Shown here: positions 2,512-53,911 of the stretch, piece after piece
Position numbering within the stretch: position 1 is the first letter of the stretch
Layout of the letters: each line of letters opens with the position of its first letter
Origin: Bacilli bacterium
GTDB lineage: Bacteria; Bacillota_I; Bacilli_A; RF39; UBA660
Direction: 5' to 3'
Length of the DNA: 64,000 nt
NCBI GenBank assembly: GCA_017940575.1
Contig: JAGAYJ010000032.1
Coordinates: 11,158 to 75,157, forward strand
Translations under genes and position numbers: made by a program
The notes under the pieces: model-generated
The model's input: only the letters and a program-made list of their open reading frames with translations
Told to the model about the DNA's origin: nothing
The model's database searches: none

Positions 2512-4686
2512 CTATGTTCCAATATTATATTTATTATTTAATATAACGCTTAATGTCATATCATTTGTAACTGTTGAATCTGCTACAATACTTTGTTCTG
2601 TAACATATCCGTATCCTTCTATATTATACTTAATATTTAACATTTTTGAAAGTGTTATAACATCATTTCTACTAAATCCTGTTATATTTGGCATTTTATA
2701 TTCACTTACATTTGTAAGAAGTATTATTTTCTCACCAGGTGCGAGTTCAGTGCCTTTTATAACTGATTGTTTAGTTATTTTATCGCCATTACCTATTATA
2801 ATTGTTTTAATACCATTTGCTTCTAACTCTGACTTTACATCGCTTGTATTTTTACTAATATATGATTTAACAATATAACTTGTAGTTTGCTTCTCTGTAA
2901 TTTCTGTAAACATATTTTTATATTTAGCTATATTTTGCATCAACGATTTAACATTTGTATATAAGCCTGATGATTTACCCCAACTTGGTTTTTTCATAGC
3001 AGCATATATAATTATCTCTGGATCATCTTTAGGAAACATTCCAGAAAATGAGAATATATAATCGTTATCTCCAGTTGAATATGTACCTGTTTGAACATTA
3101 TAAATCTGACTTGTTCCTGTTTTTCCAATTATATTGAAGCCTTCAATTTTATATGGATATCCAGTTGATCCTGGATCAGTTCCATGAATTACATTATACA
3201 TTAAATCTTTTATCTTATTTACAGTATCAACACTTACTGCATCAGTTTCCTCTACTTTTCTTTTATAAATAACTTCATTAGTATCAGAATCAACTATTTT
3301 ACTTACTATATGTGGTTTTAACATTTTACCATTATTTGAAATAATAGTTAATGCTTGAAGTTGTTGAATAGCAGTTGTAGATATACCTTGACCAAATCCT
3401 GCATTTAAAAATTCTACATCATATGTAAACTTGATATTTCCTTTTGATTCATTAGATAACTCAATTCCTGTTAAAGCGCCAAAACCATACTTTTTAAAGC
3501 ACTCTTTTAATTGTTTTTTACTTATTGAATCATTTTTAGAAAGTAAGTTAGCTATACCAACATTACTAGAGTATTCTAATCCTTTATCATATGAAATATT
3601 GCCCCATCCAGGATGATACCAGTCAAATATAATATCTTCTCCTATTGTATAACTACCAGATAAGAAAGTTTCATTTCCATTATATTTTCCATTTTCCATA
3701 GCGCACATATAAGTGAAAGTTTTCATAACTGAACCTGGTTCATATGTTTTAGTTATAAGTGGATTTTCATAGTCAGTTATATCTCTTAAGTTTGGATTAA
3801 ATGAAGGAGTTGAAGATGAAGCTAAAATATCTCCTGTTTTAGCGTCCATTACACTTATAAGTGCCCATTCAGGGTGATAATTATCTTCTATATTTTTAAC
3901 TGCTGATTCTGTAAATCTTTGAATACCTGAATCAATAGTTAGATATATATCTTCACCATTTTTTGCTGGTATTGATTTTTCTTTTGTACCACTTATTTTA
4001 TATCCATATTTATTTACTTGATATTCTGAGTATCCATCAGTACCAGATAGTTTTTTATTGTATTCTGATTCAATACCCATCTCACCAACTATTTCATTAG
4101 TGATTATTTCGTTATCTTCCTCATCATAGGTTTTAACTTCTGTATTCTTAGCATACCCAATTAAATATGAAGCAAAATTACCATTTGGATAAAATCTCTT
4201 TTGACTTTCTGTAAAACTAATTCCTGGCAAGTTTAAAGCAATTATCTCATCTTTTACAATCTCAGTTAAACCTCTACCGAAACTTCCTAATTCAACTTGG
4301 TATTTATCTTGACTCAATTTTTCTACTAGATAATCTTTCTCACAACCTAAGATAGGCGCAAGTAATTCAGCTGTTTTATCAACATCATGTACATAGTCTT
4401 CTTTTGTATATACTTTACTTTTTTCTAGTGATGCAATAATGGTATATGAACTAACATTTAAAGCTAAACTATTTCCTTCGCTATCATAAATAGTTCCTCT
4501 TTTTGCTTTAATTGTTTTTTTAACAGTATTACGACTAGATGCAAATTCCGTCATATTTTTTCCATATATTGTTGGCGATAAAGATAGATAAGCAAATTTA
4601 ATATATAATAAAAAAATGCAAATAGAAAAAACTAAAAATAAGAATTTTGGTAATTGCCAATTTTTTGTTTTCCCTAATGCATTCAT
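2512..4686 (-). CDS. Class B penicillin-binding protein (PBP2B/FtsI-type transpeptidase) with two C-terminal PASTA domains
   Basis: 724 aa with an N-terminal TM segment. Motifs SxxK (GSVMK), SxN (YSSNVG) and KTG (GKTGTSQ). Sits after ftsL in the dcw cluster. Confidence 0.9.
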   Translation of the reverse strand: MNALGKTKNWQLPKFLFLVFSICIFLLYIKFAYLSLSPTIYGKNMTEFASSRNTVKKTIKAKRGTIYDSEGNSLALNVSSYTIIASLEKSKVYTKEDYVHDVDKTAELLAPILGCEKDYLVEKLSQDKYQVELGSFGRGLTEIVKDEIIALNLPGISFTESQKRFYPNGNFASYLIGYAKNTEVKTYDEEDNEIITNEIVGEMGIESEYNKKLSGTDGYSEYQVNKYGYKISGTKEKSIPAKNGEDIYLTIDSGIQRFTESAVKNIEDNYHPEWALISVMDAKTGDILASSSTPSFNPNLRDITDYENPLITKTYEPGSVMKTFTYMCAMENGKYNGNETFLSGSYTIGEDIIFDWYHPGWGNISYDKGLEYSSNVGIANLLSKNDSISKKQLKECFKKYGFGALTGIELSNESKGNIKFTYDVEFLNAGFGQGISTTAIQQLQALTIISNNGKMLKPHIVSKIVDSDTNEVIYKRKVEETDAVSVDTVNKIKDLMYNVIHGTDPGSTGYPYKIEGFNIIGKTGTSQIYNVQTGTYSTGDNDYIFSFSGMFPKDDPEIIIYAAMKKPSWGKSSGLYTNVKSLMQNIAKYKNMFTEITEKQTTSYIVKSYISKNTSDVKSELEANGIKTIIIGNGDKITKQSVIKGTELAPGEKIILLTNVSEYKMPNITGFSRNDVITLSKMLNIKYNIEGYGYVTEQSIVADSTVTNDMTLSVILNNKYNIGT

Positions 4687-24181: not shown

Positions 24182-24841
24182 CTATTTTACACTTTTTTCC
24201 AAAGCACTTTTAGCAGCCATTTGTTCTGCTTCCTTTTTTGTATGAGCAATTCCCTCTCCATATATCACATCATCAATTTTAACAATTGCTTTAAATGTTT
24301 TATTATGCGCAGGACCTACTTCATCTACAATTACATATTCTAAGCTTCTTTTATCTGTTTGAACTAATTCTTGAAGTTCAGACTTATAATCATCAAAATA
24401 ATCTAGTTTATGTTCTTTCATAAACTCTATAGTTGTTTTATATATAATTTCTTTTGCTTTTAGGTATCCTTGATCTAAATAAACAGCTCCTATAAATGAT
24501 TCAAAAATATCTGCAACAATTGCTTTTCTATCTCTACCACCACTTAACTCTTCACCGTGACCTAAGTTTAAATATTTATTTAAACCTAATTTCATAGAGT
24601 ATTCATAGTTTGCATTCTCACATACATAGTGAGCTCTTATTTTTGTCATTTTACCTTCAGGATATCCTGTATTATTGTATAAAAAATCACTAACAACAAG
24701 TTCTAAGACAGCATCTCCCAAGTACTCTAATCTCTCATATGAAACTTTACCATGTTCATTCGCAAAAGATGTATGCGTAAATGCAGTCTTATATAATTCC
24801 ATATTAGTTGTTTTTATATTTAAATCATCAAGTATTTCCAT
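24182..24841 (-). CDS. rnc: Ribonuclease III
   Basis: 219 aa. ERLEYLGDAVLE signature and a C-terminal dsRBD (GPAHNKTF...GEGIAHTKKEAEQMAA). Confidence 0.93.
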   Translation of the reverse strand: MEILDDLNIKTTNMELYKTAFTHTSFANEHGKVSYERLEYLGDAVLELVVSDFLYNNTGYPEGKMTKIRAHYVCENANYEYSMKLGLNKYLNLGHGEELSGGRDRKAIVADIFESFIGAVYLDQGYLKAKEIIYKTTIEFMKEHKLDYFDDYKSELQELVQTDKRSLEYVIVDEVGPAHNKTFKAIVKIDDVIYGEGIAHTKKEAEQMAAKSALEKSVK

Positions 24842-26911: not shown

Positions 26912-27002
26912 TGGCGGAGTAGGCGAGATTTGAACTCGCGCGCCAGTTGCCCGACCTACACCCTTAGCAGGGGCGCCTCTTCAGCCTCTTGAGTACTACT
27001 CC
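26912..27002 (-). tRNA. tRNA-Ser (anticodon GCU), 91 nt with encoded CCA
   Basis: Folded by hand: acceptor GGAGTAG/CTACTCC, anticodon loop CUGCUAA, long variable arm, T-arm CGAGTTCAAATCTCG, discriminator G plus CCA. Confidence 0.9.
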
Positions 27003-27052: not shown

Positions 27053-27535
27053 TTATTCAAAAGATTCATCATAATTCTCACTTTTATAGTTTTCACCACA
27101 TCTTAAATATGGACTATAAGTATTATTTCCATCGTAAACTATATAACCAATGCATTTATTTTCTTTATCTTTTGGATCATATAAATCTTCCATATATTCA
27201 TCACTTACTAATTTAGATGTTTTAATAATTATTCTATCAGTTTTTCCTGTATAGTTAGTTGTTACATAAACTTTAGCAGTACTAACCATTTTTTCAAGTA
27301 AAATATCATATCCTGTTATTTTTTTATTATCTTCTTTACTCTCTTCTTTATTTTTATCCTCTATTATTTCTACATTTTCTAACTTTTTAACTTCACTTAC
27401 ATGTTTTATATCATCTACTTCACTATTAATATTCATAAAATTTCTATCAATAACAATAACACATATAACAAGTATAATCAAGAAAAAAGAAATAAAGAAT
27501 AGTAAATCTTGAAGTGTGAATCCTTTATTATTCAT
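27053..27535 (-). CDS. Prepilin-type N-terminal domain protein (divergent pseudopilin-like)
   Basis: MNNKGFTLQDLLFFISFFLIILV. The G|FTLQD signal has Asp instead of Glu at +5. The start overlaps the NrtR-like gene by 8 nt. Confidence 0.6.
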   Translation of the reverse strand: MNNKGFTLQDLLFFISFFLIILVICVIVIDRNFMNINSEVDDIKHVSEVKKLENVEIIEDKNKEESKEDNKKITGYDILLEKMVSTAKVYVTTNYTGKTDRIIIKTSKLVSDEYMEDLYDPKDKENKCIGYIVYDGNNTYSPYLRCGENYKSENYDESFE

Positions 27536-28190
27536 ATGTTATTACCTCACTATCTTTAAATCTATATAGTTTTGCTGGTCTACCCATTTTATTATTTGTT
27601 TTATAATTAGTATCTTCTAATATATTTAAATTAAGTATCATTTTTCTAAAGTTTCTTCTATCTAGTTTTTTACCTAATATTTGTTCATATACAACTTGTA
27701 GTTCAGGTAAAGTAAAATCACTTGGAAAGAATATTTTTAACATAATAGGATTAGTTAAATATCTCTTTAAATGATTAATAGCATCCTTTAATATATCAGC
27801 ATGATCAAATATCATTTTTGGTATTTCATCTACATTAAACCAAACACCTTCATAAGGAGTTTTTTTCTTATGCATTAAAAGTGATTCCTCATCAATAATA
27901 CCTATTACTGAGTTACCAAGTATTCTATCATTAGGTAGTCTATCAACTTTACTAAATATATTACATTGTTCTATATGGATATCTTTAAGTCCAACATATT
28001 CTTCTATAGTAGCAAGTGCACATTCTTCAATAGTTTCACTAGTCATAAGTAAATTACTAGGAAGCATCCAATAACCTTTAAATGGTTCTTCCAATCTTCT
28101 TATTAAATATACTTTTAAACTATTCTTATCTATTGTAAATACGTTTGTTAAAACTTCTATTTGATTTATATATCTTCTATCTATATCCAT
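27528..28190 (-). CDS. NrtR-like regulator (degenerate Nudix domain plus C-terminal winged helix)
   Basis: The Nudix fold has a degenerate box (SETIEECALATIEEYVGL). The C-terminus reads FTLPELQVVYEQILGKKLDRRNFRKMILNLNILEDT...GRPAKLYRF, typical of NrtR. The start was trimmed to MDIDRRY because the ORF-track start is the promoter -35 element TTGACA. Confidence 0.75.
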   Translation of the reverse strand: MDIDRRYINQIEVLTNVFTIDKNSLKVYLIRRLEEPFKGYWMLPSNLLMTSETIEECALATIEEYVGLKDIHIEQCNIFSKVDRLPNDRILGNSVIGIIDEESLLMHKKKTPYEGVWFNVDEIPKMIFDHADILKDAINHLKRYLTNPIMLKIFFPSDFTLPELQVVYEQILGKKLDRRNFRKMILNLNILEDTNYKTNNKMGRPAKLYRFKDSEVITYE

Positions 28191-28206
28191 ATATATCACC
28201 ATAATA

Positions 28207-28235
28207 ATTATATATAAATATACATATTTTGTCAA
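28207..28235 (-). promoter_or_regulatory. Consensus sigma-A promoter of the NrtR-like/pilin-like pair
   Basis: TTGACA-17 nt-TATAAT (perfect hexamers). Confidence 0.65.
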
Positions 28236-28242
28236 AGAATAT

Positions 28243-28271
28243 AAAGAAAAAACATATATTAGATATATGTT
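28243..28271. terminator. Hairpin terminator (bidirectional appearance)
   Basis: AACATATAT-tag-ATATATGTT, a 9-bp stem with T-rich tracts on both strands. Confidence 0.45.
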
Positions 28272-28482
28272 TAATATTTTTTTAATATCTATTAATTTTA
28301 ATAATTCATATATTTTTCATAGTTCTATTTATAAAATTCGCTAAGTCAATTTTTAGAAATCAAAAACATTTTCTATTCATTTTTCAAAATTAGTCATTTG
28401 TAATAATTCTTAAAATATATTAGTATTTACTTTGACACATTTTATTATTGTTGTGCTTCTTTCTTAGAAAGGAGTGATAAGT

Positions 28483-28560
28483 ATGAAGCGAAATAAAAAA
28501 TTCTTACATACTGAAGTAATCATTCTTCTATTAATAATTATTATTCTACTTGTTAGATAG
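28483..28560 (+). CDS. Unannotated 25-aa hydrophobic peptide (type I toxin-like): MKRNKKFLHTEVIILLLIIIILLVR
   Basis: ATG preceded by AAAGGAG at 8-nt spacing. The peptide has a basic N-terminus, a 15-residue I/L/V core and a terminal Arg. It lies in a 630-bp otherwise non-coding gap, and a convergent sRNA candidate abuts its stop codon. Confidence 0.4.
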   Translation: MKRNKKFLHTEVIILLLIIIILLVR

Positions 28561-28561
28561 T

Positions 28562-28649
28562 AAAAATAATAAAAGAACACAACATATTACACTGTAATAG
28601 TTGTGTTCAATACACAAGTATCTGAGCACACATAATAAGGTGTGTCTCT
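28562..28649 (-). ncRNA. Candidate ~88-nt small RNA convergent with the 25-aa ORF (putative type I antitoxin)
   Basis: It has its own TTGACT-16-TATAAT promoter. The 5' hairpin is GAGACACAC/GTGTGCTC. The 3' terminator is a 9+7-bp stem at 28575-28608 followed by TTTTATTATTTTT. Confidence 0.4.
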
Positions 28650-28655
28650 AATTAA

Positions 28656-28683
28656 ATTATACTCTAAATTATTATTTAGTCAA
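28656..28683 (-). promoter_or_regulatory. Near-consensus sigma-A promoter of the candidate sRNA
   Basis: TTGACT (28678-28683), 16-nt spacer, TATAAT (28656-28661). Confidence 0.55.
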
Positions 28684-28746
28684 ACAGATTTTTATACATT
28701 TTTTAATTTTCTACCCTGTGCCTACACTACCGTTCGGCACCAATAT

Positions 28747-28770
28747 CCCCCTCATCATTAGATGAGGGGG
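28747..28770. other. Perfect GC-rich hairpin CCCCCTCATC-ATTA-GATGAGGGGG
   Basis: 10-bp perfect stem with a 4-nt loop and no U-tract on either strand. It sits about 100 nt downstream of the pilin-like stop, inside the GC-rich block. Confidence 0.85.
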
Positions 28771-28795
28771 ATAGGGATTCAAGATTAGAAGATAT

Positions 28796-28850
28796 GCGAA
28801 TCATCTTATTATTATCTAGTTATTATGTTGGTCACTACCTGATGATTCGC
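28796..28850. repeat. 10-bp perfect inverted repeat GCGAATCATC / GATGATTCGC flanking a 35-bp AT-rich segment
   Basis: Read directly from the sequence. It shares the TCATC...GATGA core with the neighbouring hairpin. Confidence 0.85.
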
Positions 28851-28868
28851 CTTCGGGAGCAGCAATAC

Positions 28869-29798
28869 CTAAGAGCATACAGCTGCACCACCGCCAAGGA
28901 CATCGCATCCACCAACATCGTAAGCATAGACGGTCACAGTGCCATCAGAACTCGCATACGCATAGACAGAGTCGCCATAGCAGCGGACACCGTTAGAATC
29001 AACACCGCAGCTATCGTTTCCAAATGTATTTAATAATAATGTTTTATTTTGCTCAAATTTAGAAACATCTGCACTTCTCTCTAAGCAAAATTCTTGTCCA
29101 TTATTACCACATACATCAATTTCTTCTATTATCTCATTTGAATTTAATGTATGTTTTAAATAGACGTTCCAACTTGCATCTGGACTTGTCTTATAATCTA
29201 GATTTGGTGTTGTAAAATTTGATGCAACACATTCACCAGGTAGATTTGAATTATGACATTCCTCTTCTGTATTAAATGGAATATCTATATTATTATATGT
29301 AGTAAATACATATTTACTTCCCATATCTTGATTTGCATCAATTGGGTATCCTACATGTGTTGCTCCATTTACTCTGCTATATACAACGTTTGGATAACTA
29401 TTATCTACAACACAGTTATTTTCTTTAGTAGAACTTTTAATTTTATTATTCTCTACTACTACTTTATATTTTCCTATACATAAAGTAGATGATGATACTT
29501 TACCATTTGATAAGGCAACATATCCACTACTAGGAGTTTGTCCTTTTACTTTAACTCCTTTACTAATTAGTTCTGATACATTATATCTACTATTTAAATC
29601 AATTTTATTTGCCTCAGTTAGTTCATTTAACATAGCTTGTTTTTCTACAGCGTCAATCCATCCTAAAGCAGATGATTCTGCTCCTCCTTTTCTTGCTTTC
29701 TCAACAATACCTGAAATAGTTGGAACAGCAATTAAAGCAATGATTGCTAGTATTACTATTACTGCAAGTAATTCTATAAGTGTAAAACCTTTTTTCAT
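28869..29798 (-). CDS. Type IV pilin-like protein (prepilin N-terminus) with a compositionally foreign Cys/Gly-rich C-terminal tail
   Basis: MKKGFTLIELLAVIVILAIIALIAVP... The N-terminal ~60 aa are paralogous to the pilin-like gene at 47556-48017. The last ~47 codons are about 53% G+C. Confidence 0.75.
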   Translation of the reverse strand: MKKGFTLIELLAVIVILAIIALIAVPTISGIVEKARKGGAESSALGWIDAVEKQAMLNELTEANKIDLNSRYNVSELISKGVKVKGQTPSSGYVALSNGKVSSSTLCIGKYKVVVENNKIKSSTKENNCVVDNSYPNVVYSRVNGATHVGYPIDANQDMGSKYVFTTYNNIDIPFNTEEECHNSNLPGECVASNFTTPNLDYKTSPDASWNVYLKHTLNSNEIIEEIDVCGNNGQEFCLERSADVSKFEQNKTLLLNTFGNDSCGVDSNGVRCYGDSVYAYASSDGTVTVYAYDVGGCDVLGGGAAVCS

Positions 29799-29941
29799 AA
29801 ATTACCTCCTATATTTTACTAAATTAATTATATAAAAAATACCTTATATATGCAACAAAAATTTTTTTACTTTACACCCTATTTAGTCAAATATCGACAT
29901 ATATAAGATATATAATACACCTCCAAGAAAGAAGGAATATA

Positions 29942-30750
29942 ATGAATAATTTAAAAATAACAAATTCAAATTTCTAAATATTAAACATATTGATGAAAAT
30001 GGATTAGAATATTGGAATGCAAGAAAGTTAATGAAAGCTTTAGAATATACTGAATATAGAAAATTTCTACCAGTAATTAATAAAGCAATTATATCTTGCG
30101 AAAACATTAATCATAATAAAAATAACCATTTTGTTGATGTCAACAAAATGGTCAATATTGGTTCCAATACATCTAGAACAATAAAAGATTACAAGTTATC
30201 AAGATATGCCTGTTATCTTATTGCTCAAAATGCTGATTCAAGAAAAAAAGTTGTAGCTTTCGCTCAAACATACTTTGCTTATCAAACAAGAAAACAGGAA
30301 CTATTAGAACAAAACTATAATATGCTTACTGAAGAAGATAAAAGAATATTTAATAGAAAATTAACTAAAAAAGGAAACTATGAACTTAATCAAACGGCTT
30401 TAAAAGCAGGCGTTAGAAACTTTGGTAAATTCCGAAACGTTGGATATAAAGGTTTATATAATGGAGAAACTGCTGATGATATTGCAAAAAGAAAGAATCT
30501 TCATTATAGAGAAGAAATACTTGACCATATGGGAAGCGAAGAGTTAGCTGATAATTTATTTAGAATAGTTCAAACAGAATCTAAGATTAGAAATGAAAAA
30601 ATTATTGGAGAAGATAATTGTAGTAAAACACACTATGATATGGGACATAATATTAGAGAATTTATAAAAAATAATGGAGGAACTATGCCTGAGAACTTAC
30701 CTACTCCAAAGCATAGTTTAAAAGAAATAGAAAATAAAAAAGAGAGTTAA
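29942..30750 (+). pseudogene. dinD: dinD-family (DNA-damage-inducible protein D-like) gene with an N-terminal frameshift
   Basis: An ATG at 29942 with a GAAGGA RBS encodes MNNLKITNSNF, then TAA at 29975. The -1 frame continues NIKHIDENGLEYWNARKLMKALEY..., colinear with the intact paralog at 61444-62277 (MSKIILKNSIFEDIKHIDEEELEYWSARELQKVLGY). The ORF track starts only at the internal Met (30031). Confidence 0.6.
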
Positions 30751-30758
30751 TAACTCTC

Positions 30759-33700
30759 TTAGTTCATAAATTCTTCTTCAAGTACATCTAGTGGCTCTTG
30801 ATTAATTGTCTCTTCTTCTAATTCATATTCATGATTACGATATATTCTTGCACCAGTACCAGCAGGTATTAGTTTACCAATAATAACGTTTTCTTTTAGA
30901 CCATTTAAGTGATCTACTTTACCATGAATTGCAGCATCAGTTAAGATTCTAGTTGTCTCTTGGAATGATGCAGCTGATAAGAATGAATCAGTCTCTAGTG
31001 ACGCTTTAGTAATACCAAGAAGTACTAGACGTCCAGTAGCTGGATTTTTACCTTGAAGGATTAATTCTTTATTGATTTCTCTAAAGTGATTTATATTTAC
31101 CATAGTTCCTGGTAAGAATAGAGAATCACCAGAGTTAACAATCTTAATTCTTGAAATCATACGTTTAGCTATAATTTCAACGTGTTTATCTGAGATATCA
31201 ACACCTTGAGAACGATAAACTTTTTGAATTTCAGATAAAATATATTGTTGAACAGTAATTGGGTCAGTTACAACTAATAACTCTTTTGGTGAAATAGCAC
31301 CATGAGTAAGTCTTTGACCTGAAACTACTTCGTCACCCTTTTCTACAGCAAGTTTAGCGCCATAGTTAGATGTATGTTTTTTAACTTCAACATCATTTTT
31401 AACTGAAATAATAAATTTACCATTATCTTCAGTAATATCAGATACAACACCATTAATTTCTGAGATTGTAGCTTTACCTTTTGGATTACGTGCTTCGAAT
31501 AACTCTTGAACACGTGGAAGACCTTGAGTAATATCGTCTCCGGCAACACCACCTGAGTTGATAGTACGCATTGTAAGTTGGGTACCAGGTTCACCAATTG
31601 ATTGAGCAGCCATAATACCAACAGCCTCACCTATTTCAACCTCAAATCCTGTAGCTAAGTTACGTCCATAACAATGTTTACAAACACCGTCTTTAGATTT
31701 ACAAGTTAAAGCAGTTCTAATAGATACTTTTTCAATTCCAGCAGCAATTATCTTGTCAGCTAAAACTTCAGTAATGTATACATTTCTATCTGCAATAACT
31801 TCTTTAGTCTCAGGGTTAATTACTTTTTTATTTGTATATCTACCAACGATACGGTCTCTAAGTGACTCAATAACTGTACCATCAGTATTTAAGAATGCTG
31901 ATACAACAACACCTTCATCAGTACCACAATCTTCTTCTTTAACGATGATTTCTTGTGCTACATCAACAAGTCTACGAGTTAAGTAACCAGCATCTGCTGT
32001 TTTAAGGGCTGTATCAACGAAACCTTTTCTGATTGAGTGAGTACCTAAGAAGAATTCTGATACTCTTGCACCTTCAGTAAATGAAGATGTGATTGGAACT
32101 TCATCTGGTTTACCATTTGGTTTGTTCATTAAACCACGCATACCAGCCATTTGGTTGTAGTTTGACATGTTACCACGGGCACCAGAATCAATCATCATTG
32201 AAATTGGATTATCTTTATTATTTTTAATAATATCTGAAAGTTCATCTGCGATTTTAGTTCTTGCTTCATTCCATGATGCAATAACATTTTCGTATCTTTC
32301 ATCTTCAGTGATAATACCACGTTTATATTGTTTATTAATTTTAGCAACTTTTTCTCTAGCTTTAGCAAGTATCTCAGGTTTATCTTTTGACATAATAATG
32401 TCTCCAATACCAATTGAAATACCAGATAATGTAGATTCATTAAATCCTAAATCTTTCATTTTATCAAGCATAATTGATGTTTCAGTTGTTTGATAACGTT
32501 TATAGATTTGAGCGATTAACTTAGTTAATACTTTCTTACCGAATGGTTTAACTATAGGCATTTCAGCTATTGCAGCTTTAATATCAGTTCCCATAGGTAA
32601 GAAATATTTGCTAGGTGTTACACCTTCAATGTTTTCTTTTTCACCTTCATTGATATATTGGAATGTATCAGGGAAAATTTCATTGAATTTTAACTTACCA
32701 ACTGTAGTTACTAAATATTTATCTTTTTGTTCTTCTGTAAATAATTTATGTTTAAATCCTCTAACTGGGATTGCAATTCTTGCATGTTGAGTAATTTCAC
32801 GTCTTTCTAAAGCCATTAATGCTTCGTTAGGATCTTTAAATACTCTACCTTCACCTTTATCTCCAGCTTTTTCAATAGTAATATAATAGTTACCTAAGAT
32901 CATATCTTGTCCTGGAGTAACAATTGGATTACCATCAGATGGTTTTAGGATGTTGTTAGCACCTAACATAAGTATTCTAGCTTCTGCTTGTGCTTCTTCA
33001 CTAATTGGAACGTGTACTGCCATTTGGTCTCCATCGAAGTCGGCATTGAATGCTGTACATACAAGTGGATGAAGTCTGATTGCACGTCCATTAACTAATT
33101 TTGGTTCAAATGCTTGAATACCAAGTCTATGAAGTGTTGGAGCACGGTTTAACATAACTGGATGTTCTTTTATTTTTTCCTCAACAATATCCCAAACTCT
33201 TGGATCTTGATTTTCAATCATACGTTTTGCAGCTTTAATATTAGATGCTATTTCTTTTGATACTAAACCATTAATAATATATGGTTTAAATAGTTCTACA
33301 GCCATCTCTCTTGGAATACCACACTCATACATTTTTAAGTTTGGTCCAACAACGATAACTGAACGACCTGAGTAGTCAACACGTTTACCAAGTAAGTTTT
33401 GACGGAAACGTCCTTGTTTACCTTTTAACATGCTAGATAATGATTTTAAAGGTCTATTTCCAGCACCAGTAACATTTCTACCACGTCTACCATTATCAAA
33501 TAATGCATCTACTGCTTCTTGAAGCATACGTTTTTCATTTTGAATAATAATAGATGGAGCACCTAATTCCATTAACTTTTTAAGACGGTTATTACGGTTA
33601 ATAACTCTTCTATATAAGTCATTTAAATCAGATGATGCAAATCTACCACCATCAAGTTGAATCATTGGTCTTAACTCTGGTGGAATAACTGGAAGTACAT

Positions 33701-46825: not shown

Positions 46826-46848
46826 GCGAACGCTTGTACGTATGTCAA
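46820..46848 (-). promoter_or_regulatory. Consensus promoter of the DUF1016 gene with a LexA (Cheo) box in the spacer
   Basis: Minus strand: TTGACA-taCGTACAAGCGTTCGc-TATAAT (17-nt spacer). On the plus strand the box reads CGAACGCTTGTACG (46827-46840), one mismatch from CGAAC-N4-GTTCG. Confidence 0.6.
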
Positions 46849-50374: not shown

Positions 50375-50377
50375 CTC

Positions 50378-51526
50378 CTATACATTTTCAAATAAATCTA
50401 TATTTAATTTATCCATAAAGAATACTACAATTGATTTTAAAACAGCTATTAAAGGTGTTGATATAACCATACCAATTATACCAAGGAAATGACCAAATAT
50501 AAGTAGACCTACAATAATTGTTACTGGGTGTAATTTTGTAGTCTTACTCATTATAACTGGTTGCATAAAATTTCCTTCTAAGAACTGAATAACAACAATT
50601 GAAATAAGCGTTAAAATACCTGTAATTGGACTTTTAGCAAATCCAACTATTACAGCAGGTATGCCTCCAATATAAGGTCCTGCATATGGTATAACATTTG
50701 TAATACCACAGAATAACCCAAACAAAAGTGGTGCTCTAAGTCCAACTAACATAAATGCTATTGATGTAATTACAAATACAAAGAATGCATCAATTATGGC
50801 ACCATTAATAAATTTTCTAAGTGAATTATTAATTTCATCGCCAAGTTCTCTTGTATCTTTTTGGTATTTTTTAGGAAGCAAAGTAATAAGTAATTCTCCT
50901 GCATTATCAAATCCCATAAGTAAATAAAATCCAATAATTAATCCTACCACAAATGAACCCATACCAGATATAAATGTTTTTACTAAACCTACTGCTTTAT
51001 CAGGAAGTATTGTTGTGATAGAAGTTGAAAAATCTTCCATTTTAGTAAATATATTAGACTTAACAACATCAGCATTAAATCCATCTATTTTACTCATTTT
51101 AGATAATATATCTGACACCCATTCTTTAACACTATCAAATATAGATGGAAGTGTTTGAATAAAGTCATTTATTTGATCTCTTAATATTGGAATAATTGAT
51201 CCTACTAATAAAGCAAGTAGTCCAATAAATACAATATATACAATTGCTGTACCAATTGATCTTTTAATACCTTTCTTTTGAAGTTTTTTTACCATTGGCG
51301 CAAATAACCATGCAATAAATAAACCAATAAAAAGTGGTGCCAATATTTTTAAAATTACTAATATTAAGTATTTGATTTGTAATTCTTTAAACACCTTAAT
51401 TATAAAGAATAATGCAACTATAATTATAAAGATATATGCAATCTTTAAAATATTATCAAGTAAATTGATTGCTTCATTTACTTTTTCAATATCTAAATCT
51501 TCTTTATTTTTTACCTTTTTAAACAT
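50378..51526 (-). CDS. AI-2E family transporter (PerM/YhhT-like)
   Basis: 8 TM with NVIPYAGPYIGGIPA. The start is at MFKKVKN, behind TAGGTGAT and a TATAAT -10 element. Confidence 0.8.
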   Translation of the reverse strand: MFKKVKNKEDLDIEKVNEAINLLDNILKIAYIFIIIVALFFIIKVFKELQIKYLILVILKILAPLFIGLFIAWLFAPMVKKLQKKGIKRSIGTAIVYIVFIGLLALLVGSIIPILRDQINDFIQTLPSIFDSVKEWVSDILSKMSKIDGFNADVVKSNIFTKMEDFSTSITTILPDKAVGLVKTFISGMGSFVVGLIIGFYLLMGFDNAGELLITLLPKKYQKDTRELGDEINNSLRKFINGAIIDAFFVFVITSIAFMLVGLRAPLLFGLFCGITNVIPYAGPYIGGIPAVIVGFAKSPITGILTLISIVVIQFLEGNFMQPVIMSKTTKLHPVTIIVGLLIFGHFLGIIGMVISTPLIAVLKSIVVFFMDKLNIDLFENV

Positions 51527-51628
51527 AAAATCACCTAATAATATTATAGCAAAAAAAAAAGTTAATATAAACAATTAATTGTCTAGTTGTACTATTTTAG
51601 ACATATTAATCAATATTTTATATTAACA

Positions 51629-51715
51629 CTATGCCATATAAGCAACCATAATTATAAAAAACATAGCTATAATCATTGTTTTACTTTCTACTAAATCTCT
51701 TAATACACATACCAT
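51629..51715 (-). CDS. Unannotated 28-aa hydrophobic peptide divergent from lexA: MVCVLRDLVESKTMIIAMFFIIMVAYMA
   Basis: ATG preceded by AAAGGGA at 7-nt spacing. It is driven by TTGACA-17-TATTAT, whose spacer is a LexA box. It is too short for the ORF track. Confidence 0.45.
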   Translation of the reverse strand: MVCVLRDLVESKTMIIAMFFIIMVAYMA

Positions 51716-51739
51716 ACTATCATCCCTTTCGTTAAATTA

Positions 51740-51768
51740 ATAATAACACGAACAAAACTTCGTGTCAA
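51740..51768 (-). promoter_or_regulatory. Promoter of the 28-aa ORF with LexA box 1 in the spacer
   Basis: Minus strand: TTGACA-CGAAGTTTTGTTCGtgt-TATTAT. On the plus strand box 1 reads CGAACAAAACTTCG (51749-51762). Confidence 0.6.
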
Positions 51769-51777
51769 CAGTTTTAA

Positions 51778-51817
51778 CGAACAAAAGTTTGACTTTACAT
51801 TTTTTTTATGATATTAT
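51778..51817 (+). promoter_or_regulatory. lexA promoter with LexA box 2 overlapping the -35 element
   Basis: CGAACAAAAGTTTG (51778-51791), TTGACT (51789-51794), 17-nt spacer, TATTAT (51812-51817). Confidence 0.6.
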
Positions 51818-51846
51818 ATACATGTAAGTTAAAAAAGGAGGTTTAT

Positions 51847-52464
51847 ATGGAAAAATTAACTAAAAGACAAGAAGATATTTTAGACTATATAAAAAAATAT
51901 ATTGTTGCTCATGGATTTCCACCTACTATTAGAGAAATAGGTGCAGCTCTTGATTTATCTAGTCCAGCAACAATACATGCACATCTTGCTAATCTAGAAA
52001 AAAAAGGTTTTATTAAAAAACAAGATTCTAAAAATAGAACATTAGAATTACTTGTTGATAATGAATATGATGTTAAAGATGAATTAACTATAGAAGTTCC
52101 TTTACTTGGTAAAATCACTGCAGGAAATCCAATTGAAGCAATTGAACATCCTGATGAGTTTTTTCCAATTCCATCATATTTAATTCCAAAAGGAAAAGAT
52201 GTATTTACACTAAATGTACATGGTGAAAGTATGATAAATGCAGGAATTCTTGATGGTGATATCGTAATTGTTGAAAAATCTAATACTGCAAGAAACGGTC
52301 AGATAGTAGTTGCAATGACAGACGAAAAAGAAGTAACACTTAAAACATTCTATAAAGAAAAAGATCATATAAGACTTCAACCTGAAAATGATTCAATGGA
52401 ACCATTTATATTTAAAAATGTGAAAATACTAGGTATAGCAATCGGATTATACAGAAAAATATAG
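51847..52464 (+). CDS. lexA: SOS repressor LexA
   Basis: MEKLTKRQEDILDYIKKYI...GFPPTIREIG (wHTH), the VPLLGKITAG cleavage-site region, and the GESM...K peptidase S24 domain. The start is at 51847, behind AAGGAGG. Confidence 0.93.
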   Translation: MEKLTKRQEDILDYIKKYIVAHGFPPTIREIGAALDLSSPATIHAHLANLEKKGFIKKQDSKNRTLELLVDNEYDVKDELTIEVPLLGKITAGNPIEAIEHPDEFFPIPSYLIPKGKDVFTLNVHGESMINAGILDGDIVIVEKSNTARNGQIVVAMTDEKEVTLKTFYKEKDHIRLQPENDSMEPFIFKNVKILGIAIGLYRKI

Positions 52465-52483
52465 CTTATAAGCTATATTTTTT

Positions 52484-53266
52484 TTAATGATTGTTTTTGT
52501 AATTTTCATACCAAGATTTAACTTTTACTTTTTCTTCTTCATATATATTTGATGTAGTATCTTTTAAAGATTTGCCAGTATCTTTCAAATTATCATGTAG
52601 ATTATCTATACTATCAAGTGTCTCATCACTTAAATTCTCTTTTATATTATTGATAATTCCATTATATTGGTCAAAAGTCCAATCTGCAGCTTTATTATAT
52701 TTATTTTTTATATCTTCTTTATATGTCGGATATTTAATTGATATTATACTATCTATCTCAGCAAAATCATTTAATATTGTTTTTTTTGTTTCTTCTTTTA
52801 AATCATTATACCTAATTCCATAAATTTCTGTATCATAAAAAATAAAATCAGTAATTGTTATAAATAAGTCAATTGCTTTTTCCTTAAATTCATCTAAACT
52901 TGATGTATTTTTTAAATCATTCTTTAAATCATTAAAATAAGTAACAATAATCTCATCATTTGTTTGAGCATTATTTTCACTATTTAAATCAGTAGTATTT
53001 TGTTCTTCTAAAATTGCATTTGATTCATTAGTTACATCATTACCAGATTCATCAATAATTGTAATAACATATTCATCAGTTTGATTATTATCTGGTTCAA
53101 TATGATCTAAATCAATTTTTTCATCAAAAACAGTTTCTTCTTCAATTTTAGGTTCACTTTTATACTCAACTTCTCTGGTCTCTCCACATGATGTCATTAA
53201 TATAATTGAACTTGGAACAATCATTAATATGCCTTTATAAATTTTTAAGTTTTTCAATTTTCTCAT
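52484..53266 (-). CDS. Acidic lipoprotein, unknown function
   Basis: MRKLKNLKIYKGILMIVPSSIILMTSC (lipobox), then a highly acidic D/E/N-rich sequence. The start choice is uncertain (alternatives 53296 and 53224), and it overlaps the queH 3' end. Confidence 0.45.
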   Translation of the reverse strand: MRKLKNLKIYKGILMIVPSSIILMTSCGETREVEYKSEPKIEEETVFDEKIDLDHIEPDNNQTDEYVITIIDESGNDVTNESNAILEEQNTTDLNSENNAQTNDEIIVTYFNDLKNDLKNTSSLDEFKEKAIDLFITITDFIFYDTEIYGIRYNDLKEETKKTILNDFAEIDSIISIKYPTYKEDIKNKYNKAADWTFDQYNGIINNIKENLSDETLDSIDNLHDNLKDTGKSLKDTTSNIYEEEKVKVKSWYENYKNNH

Positions 53267-53867
53267 CCCTTTCCATCTTAGAATAAATACATCCACAGTA
53301 ATCTTGTCTATATAAGTTATATACTTTAGATAATTCTATACTTCTCTTATATCCATTATTCTTTTTAAAATCAGAATATAAATATTTAATATTATATTTT
53401 TCACTCAACTCTTCTCCTATTTTATTTAATACTTGACTATTTTTATAAGGGCTTACAGTTAAAGTTGTTCCAAAATAGTCATAGTTTCTATCGTGAGCTA
53501 CTTGTGCGGTTTTCTCTAGTCTCATTCTATAGCACTTAAAGCATCTTTCTCCGCCTTCTTTTGCATGTTCTAATCCCTTAGCTATTTTTAAAAAATCATT
53601 ATAGTCATATCCAACTTCTATAAAATCAAGTTTATTTTTAGATTTAAATTCACTAATAAACTTCTTTTGTTCTTCTTTTCTCTTTTCATATTCAGTTATA
53701 GGAGAAATATTAGGATTATAATATATTACTGTTATATCAAAATAATTTGATAAATATTCAATGCAACGAGATGAACAAGGCGCACAGCAAGAATGAAGTA
53801 ATAACTTTGGTGTATAGTCTAGAGATTCAACTAATTCTTCTAATTTTTTTTGATAATTAACATTCAT
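53235..53867 (-). CDS. queH: Epoxyqueuosine reductase QueH (DUF208)
   Basis: LLLHSCCAPCS, CFKCYRMRL and YCGC motifs. Confidence 0.85.
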   Translation of the reverse strand: MNVNYQKKLEELVESLDYTPKLLLHSCCAPCSSRCIEYLSNYFDITVIYYNPNISPITEYEKRKEEQKKFISEFKSKNKLDFIEVGYDYNDFLKIAKGLEHAKEGGERCFKCYRMRLEKTAQVAHDRNYDYFGTTLTVSPYKNSQVLNKIGEELSEKYNIKYLYSDFKKNNGYKRSIELSKVYNLYRQDYCGCIYSKMERDEKIEKLKNL

Positions 53868-53911
53868 GTAACCCCTCCTTAATTGACATTTATTATATTC
53901 TAAAAAAATTA

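Follow-up and report, generated by a model that had tools for sequence, protein, structure and literature searches.

A candidate type I toxin-antitoxin-like cassette with a predicted 5'-3' mRNA lock in uncultured gut Bacilli

Does a 25-codon open reading frame (ORF), faced from the opposite strand by the gene of a small RNA (sRNA), constitute a type I toxin-antitoxin system in an uncultured bacterium? This question is raised by positions 28398-28683 of a 64-kb stretch of contig JAGAYJ010000032.1 (the window, by which we mean the whole stretch of DNA analysed), for which the original prediction proposed a type I toxin-antitoxin-like module. We have compared this segment with two diverged homologues, designated L107 and L198, and consider that it is probably a self-contained type I toxin-antitoxin-like cassette, with putative toxicity of the peptide and putative neutralisation by the sRNA. 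The cassette appears to be a credible new type I family, in which antisense control through a 3' overlap would be joined to a 5'-3' lock of the hok/aapA1 kind. Two general characters of type I systems are present: a small (<60 amino acids, aa) hydrophobic peptide encoded by an ORF, and, in silico, an antisense RNA that has its own promoter and terminator and is complementary to the mRNA. The flanking genes point to uncultured gut Bacilli, whose relatives are metagenome-assembled genomes from the guts of ruminants and other animals, and the G+C content of the window is 25%.

The predicted parts of the cassette are listed below with their positions in the window.

28320-28690, unstranded: whole conserved cassette of about 370 bp, delimited by three-way similarity and present or absent as a unit
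28372-28397, + strand: block upstream of the peptide promoter, ATTCATTTTTCAAAATTAGTCATTTG
28398-28426, + strand: weak promoter of the peptide mRNA, TTGTAA-17-TAGTAT, with 8/12 consensus matches; predicted start at 28433/28434
28434-28460, + strand: 5' arm of the long-range 5'-3' helix, pairing with 28620-28646
28468-28474 and 28483-28560, + strand: Shine-Dalgarno sequence (SD) and ORF of the peptide gene, a putative membrane toxin
28504-28527, + strand: codons 8-15, a block pairing with the SD and AUG in every fold
28575-28608, - strand: terminator hairpin of the sRNA, 15 pairs and one bulge, followed by a U-tract at 28574-28562
28620-28648, - strand as the 5' hairpin of the sRNA and + strand as the 3' arm of the mRNA helix
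28649->28563, - strand: predicted antisense sRNA of about 85 nt, the putative antitoxin, with its own promoter, fold and terminator
28683-28656, - strand: sRNA promoter with 11/12 consensus matches (-35 TTGACT at 28683-28678, -10 TATAAT at 28661-28656)

The 5'-3' helix, the hairpin that buries the SD and AUG, the presence/absence polymorphism and the retroelement context described below are additions to the original prediction.

Conservation of the peptide gene and its antisense RNA in three copies

Similarity among the three copies begins at about 28320 and stops just outside the -35 box of the sRNA promoter (28683-28690); L107 and L198 are 66-94% identical to the window over the parts of the cassette, all elements are conserved at 66-100% identity, and the flanks are unrelated. 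L107 (2598-2919, 79% identical to 28380-28694 of the window) was obtained by scanning metagenomes with a palindromic 9+9-nt pattern of the terminator stem. Because this pattern is unspecific, L107 was the one true homologue among the matches listed (at least 120, most of them hairpins that match by chance), and further homologues may be present in these metagenomes; two other loci sharing 22 nt with the cassette (L041 and L064) were rejected as unrelated terminators. L107 belongs to a related organism, in which the proteins encoded beside the cassette are 85-92% identical to those of window genes at 50375-53879. L198 was reached by a separate route, through relatives of the neighbouring pilin-like protein, and was thus identified independently of the terminator hairpin. 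Pairwise identity varies along the cassette in step with the predicted functional elements, as listed below.

sRNA promoter: 86-93%
Terminator hairpin: 94% (stems 100%, loop variable)
SD region: 84-95%
Codons 8-15: 88-100%
Block upstream of the peptide -35 box (28372-28397): 77-92%
Linker between the sRNA hairpins: 45-55%
Peptide promoter region: 49-69%
Sequence beyond 28320: 42-64%

The SD AAAGGAG (28468-28474), its 8-nt spacing to the ATG at 28483 and the 25-codon ORF on the + strand, all named in the original prediction, were read directly from the sequence at the same coordinates, and translation of the ORF gives MKRNKKFLHTEVIILLLIIIILLVR. The homologous peptides are MQKNEKLLHTEVIILLGIIIVLLVR in L107 and MRKNEKILHAEVIILLFIIIILILK in L198. 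Conservation of this ORF, one of the points on which the prediction was to stand or fall, was found: start, stop, SD and length of 25 codons are the same in all three copies, and the stretch AGAAAGGAGTGATA around the SD is unchanged. The peptide layout stated earlier, with a basic N-terminus, an Ile/Leu/Val core (13 residues) and a terminal Arg, also holds, the core being kept in each copy and the last residue being Arg or Lys. These features persist despite 16-17 nucleotide differences in the ORF per pair of copies. Variable sites are distributed over codon positions 1, 2 and 3 as 12, 4 and 8, with the second position least variable, and the amino-acid exchanges are mostly conservative (Lys/Arg, or among Ile, Leu, Val and Phe). 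When an equal number of random substitutions was simulated for each pair, start, frame and stop survived in 10-13% of trials, and a core at least as hydrophobic was retained as well in 0-0.4% (0-0.004 per pair). The other five frames across the ORF have stops or worse substitution patterns in the three copies.

The translation start can also be compared with others in the window. The motif AGGAG followed after 4-10 nt by ATG occurs 25 times, and 18 of these precede ORFs of at least 70 aa; since such starts mostly belong to real genes, the motif is a good predictor here. The candidate is the sole short ORF (at least 20 aa) in the window that is led by AGGAG and has a long hydrophobic run. From these data we infer that the ORF is translated, and its product would be a small hydrophobic peptide directed to the membrane.

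On the opposite strand, the TTGACT-16-TATAAT promoter proposed at 28656-28683 proved to have unchanged hexamers in all three copies, with spacers of 16, 17 and 16 nt, and the predicted sRNA start is A28649 or G28648. The window has 18 promoters with at least 11/12 matches, where shuffles have 7.0 +/- 2.5, and this excess indicates that near-consensus promoters are mostly real signals in this DNA. The predicted fold of the RNA 28650->28558 (- strand) has three elements, namely a hairpin at the 5' end, a small one in the middle and the long terminator hairpin, after which comes UUUUAUUAUUUUU; its energy is -27.8 kcal/mol (z = -4.7; none of 200 shuffles was as stable). A short antisense RNA with a 5' hairpin and a terminator at 28575-28608 had been suggested, and this structure is conserved in L107 and L198. 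All 15 pairs of the terminator hairpin are invariant, and its loop alone varies (AGU, AUC and AUUU on the sRNA strand). As had been pointed out for the window, the hairpin lacks a U-tract on the + strand, and the same is true of all three copies. The stems of the 5' hairpin are conserved, and its loop diverges in step with the 5' arm of the mRNA. The three-copy comparison bears out the 3'-overlap arrangement with full complementarity, in that the sRNA is complementary to the whole predicted 3' untranslated region (UTR) of the peptide mRNA, over about 85 nt (28563-28649). A second contact of the sRNA with the 5' UTR and SD of the mRNA was considered and rejected, because its energies (-23.3 and -24.6 kcal/mol) lie within one standard deviation of those of shuffled sRNAs. 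Since the sRNA gene overlaps the 3' UTR only and pairing at the 5' side is no better than that of shuffles, the sRNA is not antisense to the translation-initiation region.

The peptide mRNA is predicted to have two conserved structures. The long-range 5'-3' helix is present both in the minimum-energy fold of the window and in the consensus fold of the three copies, and it consists of 23 pairs, of which two show compensatory changes and four are changed on one side, with 97% of cells paired. Pairing of cognate 5' and 3' arms is more stable (-25.9 and -30.4 kcal/mol) than that of chimeric arms of the window and L107 (-22.1 and -23.1 kcal/mol). Since the two arms form an inverted repeat, the sRNA begins with almost the sequence of the mRNA 5' arm. 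The other structure is the SD hairpin, in which AGGAGUGAU pairs with AUCAUUCUU and GUAUG pairs with CAUAC. Its coding side, codons 8-15, is the most conserved coding stretch (100%, 88% and 88% identity between copies, against 67-86% for flanking codons), and the sole change at a paired position of this block, found in L198, retains a U-G pair. The consensus mRNA structure of the three copies has 69 pairs, with standard pairs in 96.6% of cells, and the folds are far more stable than those of shuffles. The covariation analysis that the original prediction had called for gave five pairs in which both partners had changed; shuffles gave 1.7 +/- 1.1, five being reached in 4 of 500, and slid controls gave 0-2. 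When the 3' arm was deleted, the freed CU-rich 5' UTR paired with the SD in both copies folded. Read-through of the mRNA across the sRNA terminator, also part of the original proposal, would be demanded by the conserved 5'-3' helix, since the mRNA must then extend to at least about 28646.

The weak toxin promoter at 28398-28426 was retained in position though not in sequence. The corresponding promoters of the three copies are TTGTAA-17-TAGTAT (the window), TTGATT-16-TATAAA and TTGCAC-17-TATTAT, and each stops 7-8 nt upstream of GACAC, the predicted mRNA 5' end. The better conserved block ATTCATTTTTCAAAATTAGTCATTTG upstream of it is a candidate UP element or operator. We also observed, in the spacer of the sRNA promoter (28662-28677), a palindrome CTAAAT-N4/5-ATTTAG that all three copies keep; an operator is one possible role for it, and a weak hairpin where the peptide mRNA ends is another.

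Searches for further copies and for known families were negative within their scopes. Neither BLAST nor the covariance model of the sRNA, which scores 103-113 bits on the three copies from which it was built, found another copy in the 64-kb window or in about 1 Mb of related loci. Five DNA patterns searched against viral contigs gave no matches or ordinary ribosome-binding sites only, BLAST against plasmids and phages gave chance AT-rich matches only, and nothing was found with the 46-aa extended ORF of L107. The peptide has no match in Pfam (E up to 1) or NCBIfam, and the segment 28398-28683 has none in Rfam at gathering thresholds or even at E up to 10. A permissive Rfam run gave a tRNA gene at 26915-27002 (- strand; 49.9 bits) with a long variable arm and the anticodon GCU, which is probably tRNA-Ser. 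This gene was not listed in the whole-window Rfam run at gathering thresholds, and the filters of that run can therefore miss real RNAs.

Genomic site and retroelement context

Positions 27500-30800 are carried at 100% identity by five independent assemblies, so the arrangement of the cassette is not an assembly artefact. The cassette lies in a strain-variable island (28260-30652) between rpoC and an NrtR-like gene (Nudix and winged-helix domains), together with a pilin-like gene (28869-29798) and dinD (30031-30750). The island is absent in two relatives, L002 (NrtR-like protein 93% identical) and L027 (98.7% DNA identity over the NrtR-like gene), in which rpoC directly abuts the NrtR-like gene. 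A third relative, L001 (95%), has the pilin-like gene and its G+C-rich tail and lacks about 28262-28700; its contig is too short to include dinD. In L107 the cassette is placed between a lipoprotein gene and lexA. The corresponding lexA site of the window has just a 19-nt bidirectional terminator and no cassette, and the same holds for 33 loci from relatives with a LexA 90-98% identical to the L107 protein. The synteny comparison suggested with the original prediction thus revealed the cassette at different sites, and empty sites in close relatives at both loci indicate that it is a single-copy unit, discrete and sporadic in occurrence. Neither the window site nor the L107 site showed a target-site duplication, and the neighbour on the peptide-promoter side differs among the three copies.

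In L198, and in part in L194, a diversity-generating retroelement runs directly into the cassette, which begins at the stop codon of the final retroelement gene. The order there is a pilin-like target gene with a variable region, the template repeat, bAvd, reverse transcriptase, a gene with a MutS_I domain, and the cassette; the positions concerned are 240-3671 in L198 and 28700-29798 (- strand) in the window. Template repeat and variable region share 83% identity, with mismatches almost only at template adenines. The pilin-like homologue of these loci is 80% identical to that of the window, and the pilin-like gene of the window (28869-29798, - strand) is, judging from sequence, the target of a diversity-generating retroelement. 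No template repeat, Avd or reverse transcriptase was found in the 64-kb window, from which the retroelement core is missing, and this loss ends exactly at the -35 box of the sRNA (junction 28691 / 28684).

Several observations were made around these junctions. The variable region of the window (about 28870-29030) has 44-48% G+C, and an in-frame TAG shortens the pilin-like protein by 20 aa. Downstream of it, a perfect 13-bp G+C-rich hairpin (28744-28773) looks like the target-recognition hairpin of diversity-generating retroelements. At the other end of the island, an AT-rich hairpin at 28243-28279 (AAAGAAAAAACATATAT / ATATATGTTTAATATTT), followed by a T-run on the - strand and found also in L001, is probably a terminator insulating the NrtR-like promoter (28235-28207, 12/12 consensus matches) from upstream transcription. 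The insertion point of the cassette lies immediately beyond this hairpin, and the L107 cassette likewise adjoins a host terminator hairpin. In L198, a T-box-like leader (AAGGTGGTACCACGG, then a terminator; about 4130-4363) precedes the gene flanking the cassette.

Control of the cassette by the SOS regulator LexA, as the neighbours dinD and lexA might suggest, was rejected because no LexA box lies in or near the cassette within one mismatch; dinD likewise has none within one mismatch, and the LexA boxes of this organism sit upstream of lexA. Two of them, CGAACAAAACTTCG and CGAACAAAAGTTTG (51749-51791), lie between lexA and a divergent, conserved hydrophobic ORF of 28-32 aa, MVCVLRDLVESKTMIIAMFFIIMVAYMA (51629-51715, - strand), which has been annotated as a gene in many relatives. 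Its product may be a small membrane peptide induced in the SOS response, analogous to the division inhibitors YneA/SosA or a toxin like tisB. A third LexA-box-like site with one mismatch, CGAACGCTTGTACG (46827-46840), overlaps a 12/12 promoter (46848-46820, - strand) and probably marks another SOS gene.

Proposed mechanism and alternative explanations

For the toxin-antitoxin-like cassette we propose the following course of events. The weak promoter at 28398-28426 would give an mRNA of about 215-230 nt from about G28434, encoding a peptide of 25 residues that would insert into the membrane. This mRNA would be translationally inert, with its 5' end paired to its 3' end (28434-28460 with 28620-28646) and with its SD and AUG buried against codons 8-15. 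The strong convergent promoter at 28683-28656 would give the sRNA of about 85 nt (28649->28563), whose 5' end, mimicking that of the mRNA, would compete with it for the 3' arm of the mRNA and displace it. Binding would produce a duplex of about 85 bp, a substrate for RNase III, whose gene is present in the window (24182-24841). The freed CU-rich 5' UTR would then pair again with the SD and keep translation blocked, so that the net effect would be decay of the mRNA with a continued translational block, as described for bsrG/SR4. Production of both RNAs, toxicity of the peptide, neutralisation by the sRNA and participation of RNase III are here what we infer.

Several points weigh against this proposal. 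The cassette is single-copy and rare, and type I toxin-antitoxin loci commonly occur in several copies. The + strand yielded no convincing intrinsic terminator that could end the peptide mRNA. The independent sequences are three, which makes the covariation statistics thin, and the stems of the terminator and of the SD hairpin never vary and are uninformative on pairing either way; L107, moreover, was found with a pattern requiring the terminator stems, whose identity in that copy is not independent. The codon changes between the window and L198 are three synonymous and nine non-synonymous, and purifying selection on the peptide appears only moderate, being seen chiefly as conservative replacement. 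The unbroken hydrophobic run has 13 residues (18 when FLHTE is included), which is short for a membrane span. One antisense frame over the ORF is also open in all three copies (28464-28580 on the - strand of the window, 38 aa; 2713-2880 of L107, 55 aa; 3724-3942 of L198, 72 aa). We rejected it as a real gene because it has no SD, begins inside the terminator stem, has variable ends and shows four synonymous against eight non-synonymous changes; it is probably a by-product of codon composition.

The conserved ORF, sRNA and mRNA structures are equally compatible with a gene for a small membrane protein under cis-antisense control, in which the peptide is a benign regulator or accessory and the sRNA only tunes its level, and the single-copy state of the cassette would suit this explanation. 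We regard it as unlikely, because the layered controls against translation (a weak promoter opposed by a near-consensus antisense one, the buried SD and AUG, and the lock) are typical of harmful products, and because sporadic occurrence at different loci near accessory DNA fits selfish or addiction modules better than housekeeping peptides. A much stronger claim can be made in the opposite direction, namely that the cassette is a new, autonomously spreading addiction module guarding the accessory island, with the pilin-like surface protein diversified by the retroelement as the guarded cargo. The sRNA would act by a strand-displacement mimicry not known to have been described before, its 5' end copying that of the mRNA, evicting it from the 5'-3' lock and forming a substrate of RNase III. 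Since deletions that remove the antitoxin promoter would not survive, the edge of the core loss at the -35 box would be read as a footprint of addiction. In this extended form the claim seems to us distinctly unlikely.

That the segment is a non-coding mobile element or a stand-alone sRNA, with the repeat 28434-28460 / 28620-28646 resembling that of a miniature inverted-repeat transposable element (MITE) and the ORF incidental, is suggested by the inverted repeats flanking about 210 bp, by the occurrence of the unit at different sites and by the ease with which hydrophobic ORFs arise in AT-rich DNA. We hold it quite improbable, since the conserved unit runs well past both repeat arms, out to both promoters, the ORF keeps its SD, start, length, stop and hydrophobic core in spite of its substitutions, and neither a second copy nor a target-site duplication was seen in the searches described above. 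The position of the cassette at the last stop codon of the retroelement in L198/L194, and in the window at the place where the core is missing, might alternatively mark it as an accessory part of the retroelement, a 3' terminator or a regulatory RNA left behind after deletion of the core. However, no retroelement is present on the 6-kb contig of L107, where the cassette stands between the lipoprotein gene and lexA, and the cassette is intact in the window, whose 64 kb contain neither Avd nor reverse transcriptase, so that this origin is very improbable indeed. That a promoter-like site, some hairpins and an AT-rich ORF have come together by chance in an intergenic gap could be argued from the facts that promoter-like sites with at least 9/12 matches are not commoner in the window than in shuffles and that AT-rich sequence abounds in Ile, Leu, Lys and Asn codons. 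We give it almost no credence, because conservation of all elements at three loci with unrelated flanks, together with the compensatory changes, excludes chance.

Comparison with known type I systems

The systems bsrG/SR4 and txpA/RatA of Bacillus subtilis prophage-like elements (also bsrE/SR5 and yonT/SR6) resemble the cassette in having an antitoxin promoter stronger than the toxin promoter and a long overlap at the 3' ends, predicted here to be about 85 nt (28563-28649). The cassette differs from them in having no sequence or profile relation (Pfam, NCBIfam, Rfam), a shorter peptide (25 aa, compared with 30-59), a long 5'-3' closing helix in the mRNA, and an sRNA whose 5' end mimics that of the mRNA. 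To our knowledge, neither this helix nor this mimicry has been described for systems of the bsrG/SR4 type. The polarity of bsrG/txpA-type peptides is also opposite to that of the cassette peptide, in which the N-terminus is the charged end and the C-terminus the hydrophobic one. Further common points are an SD sequestered in the mRNA, the presence of RNase III in the host and a location in accessory DNA (PMC6562991, PMC3834814). In the two Bacillus systems the 3' ends overlap by 100-140 bp, decay of the mRNA is assisted by RNase III, on which txpA/RatA depends, and the SD sequestration is extended, SR4 acting dually on bsrG mRNA (PMC3834814, PMC6562991). The predicted pairing of the freed 5' UTR with the SD resembles the helix extension by SR4.

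Pairing between the 5' and 3' ends of the toxin mRNA, predicted here with 23 pairs, is shared with hok/Sok of plasmid R1 and aapA/IsoA of Helicobacter pylori. The hok mRNA is known for its fold-back interaction. The antisense RNAs of hok/Sok and aapA1/IsoA1 target the 5' region of an activated, 3'-processed mRNA, whereas the target in the cassette would be the 3' UTR including the 3' arm of the lock; these systems have no sequence similarity to the cassette, and their hosts are Gram-negative. Like the predicted mRNA of the cassette, the full-length aapA1 toxin mRNA is inert, with its SD sequestered (PMC5416894). Type I toxins can be as short as 19-30 aa, and AapA1, of about 30 aa, needs its C-terminal basic residues (PMC8309996); the cassette peptide also ends in a basic residue.

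The cassette has no homology to ibs/Sib and shoB/OhsC of Escherichia coli. The Sib RNA is antisense to the whole of the ibs coding region, and OhsC is a divergent RNA that has its action at the 5' end. The likeness lies in their very short hydrophobic toxins, of 19 and 26 aa, which depolarise the membrane when over-expressed (PMC8309996). The par locus of pAD1 (fst/RNAII) shares with the cassette the convergent arrangement of a small hydrophobic toxin gene and an antisense RNA in a Gram-positive host. Unlike the cassette, par has a shared bidirectional terminator and 5' direct repeats; the cassette hairpin has a U-tract on the - strand only, its two RNAs have 5' ends that are alike and not complementary, and Pfam Fst_toxin gave no match (E up to 1).

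The cassette would thus work like the Bacillus 3'-overlap type I systems with a lock added, and by sequence it is a member of no described family, which makes it a candidate new one. As far as we know, almost all characterised type I systems come from few cultured model bacteria, and no described type I system for these uncultured gut Bacilli was found in the literature searched. The cassette is a well supported candidate family from uncultured, AT-rich gut Bacilli with reduced genomes. That it stands where a retroelement island ends, and has outlasted the retroelement core in the window, suggests a role in stabilising accessory DNA. Within about 370 bp, the cassette appears to unite 3'-overlap antisense control and a 5'-3' mRNA lock, which usually occur in separate systems, and this compactness would make it an attractive minimal model and possibly a portable part for RNA-based control.

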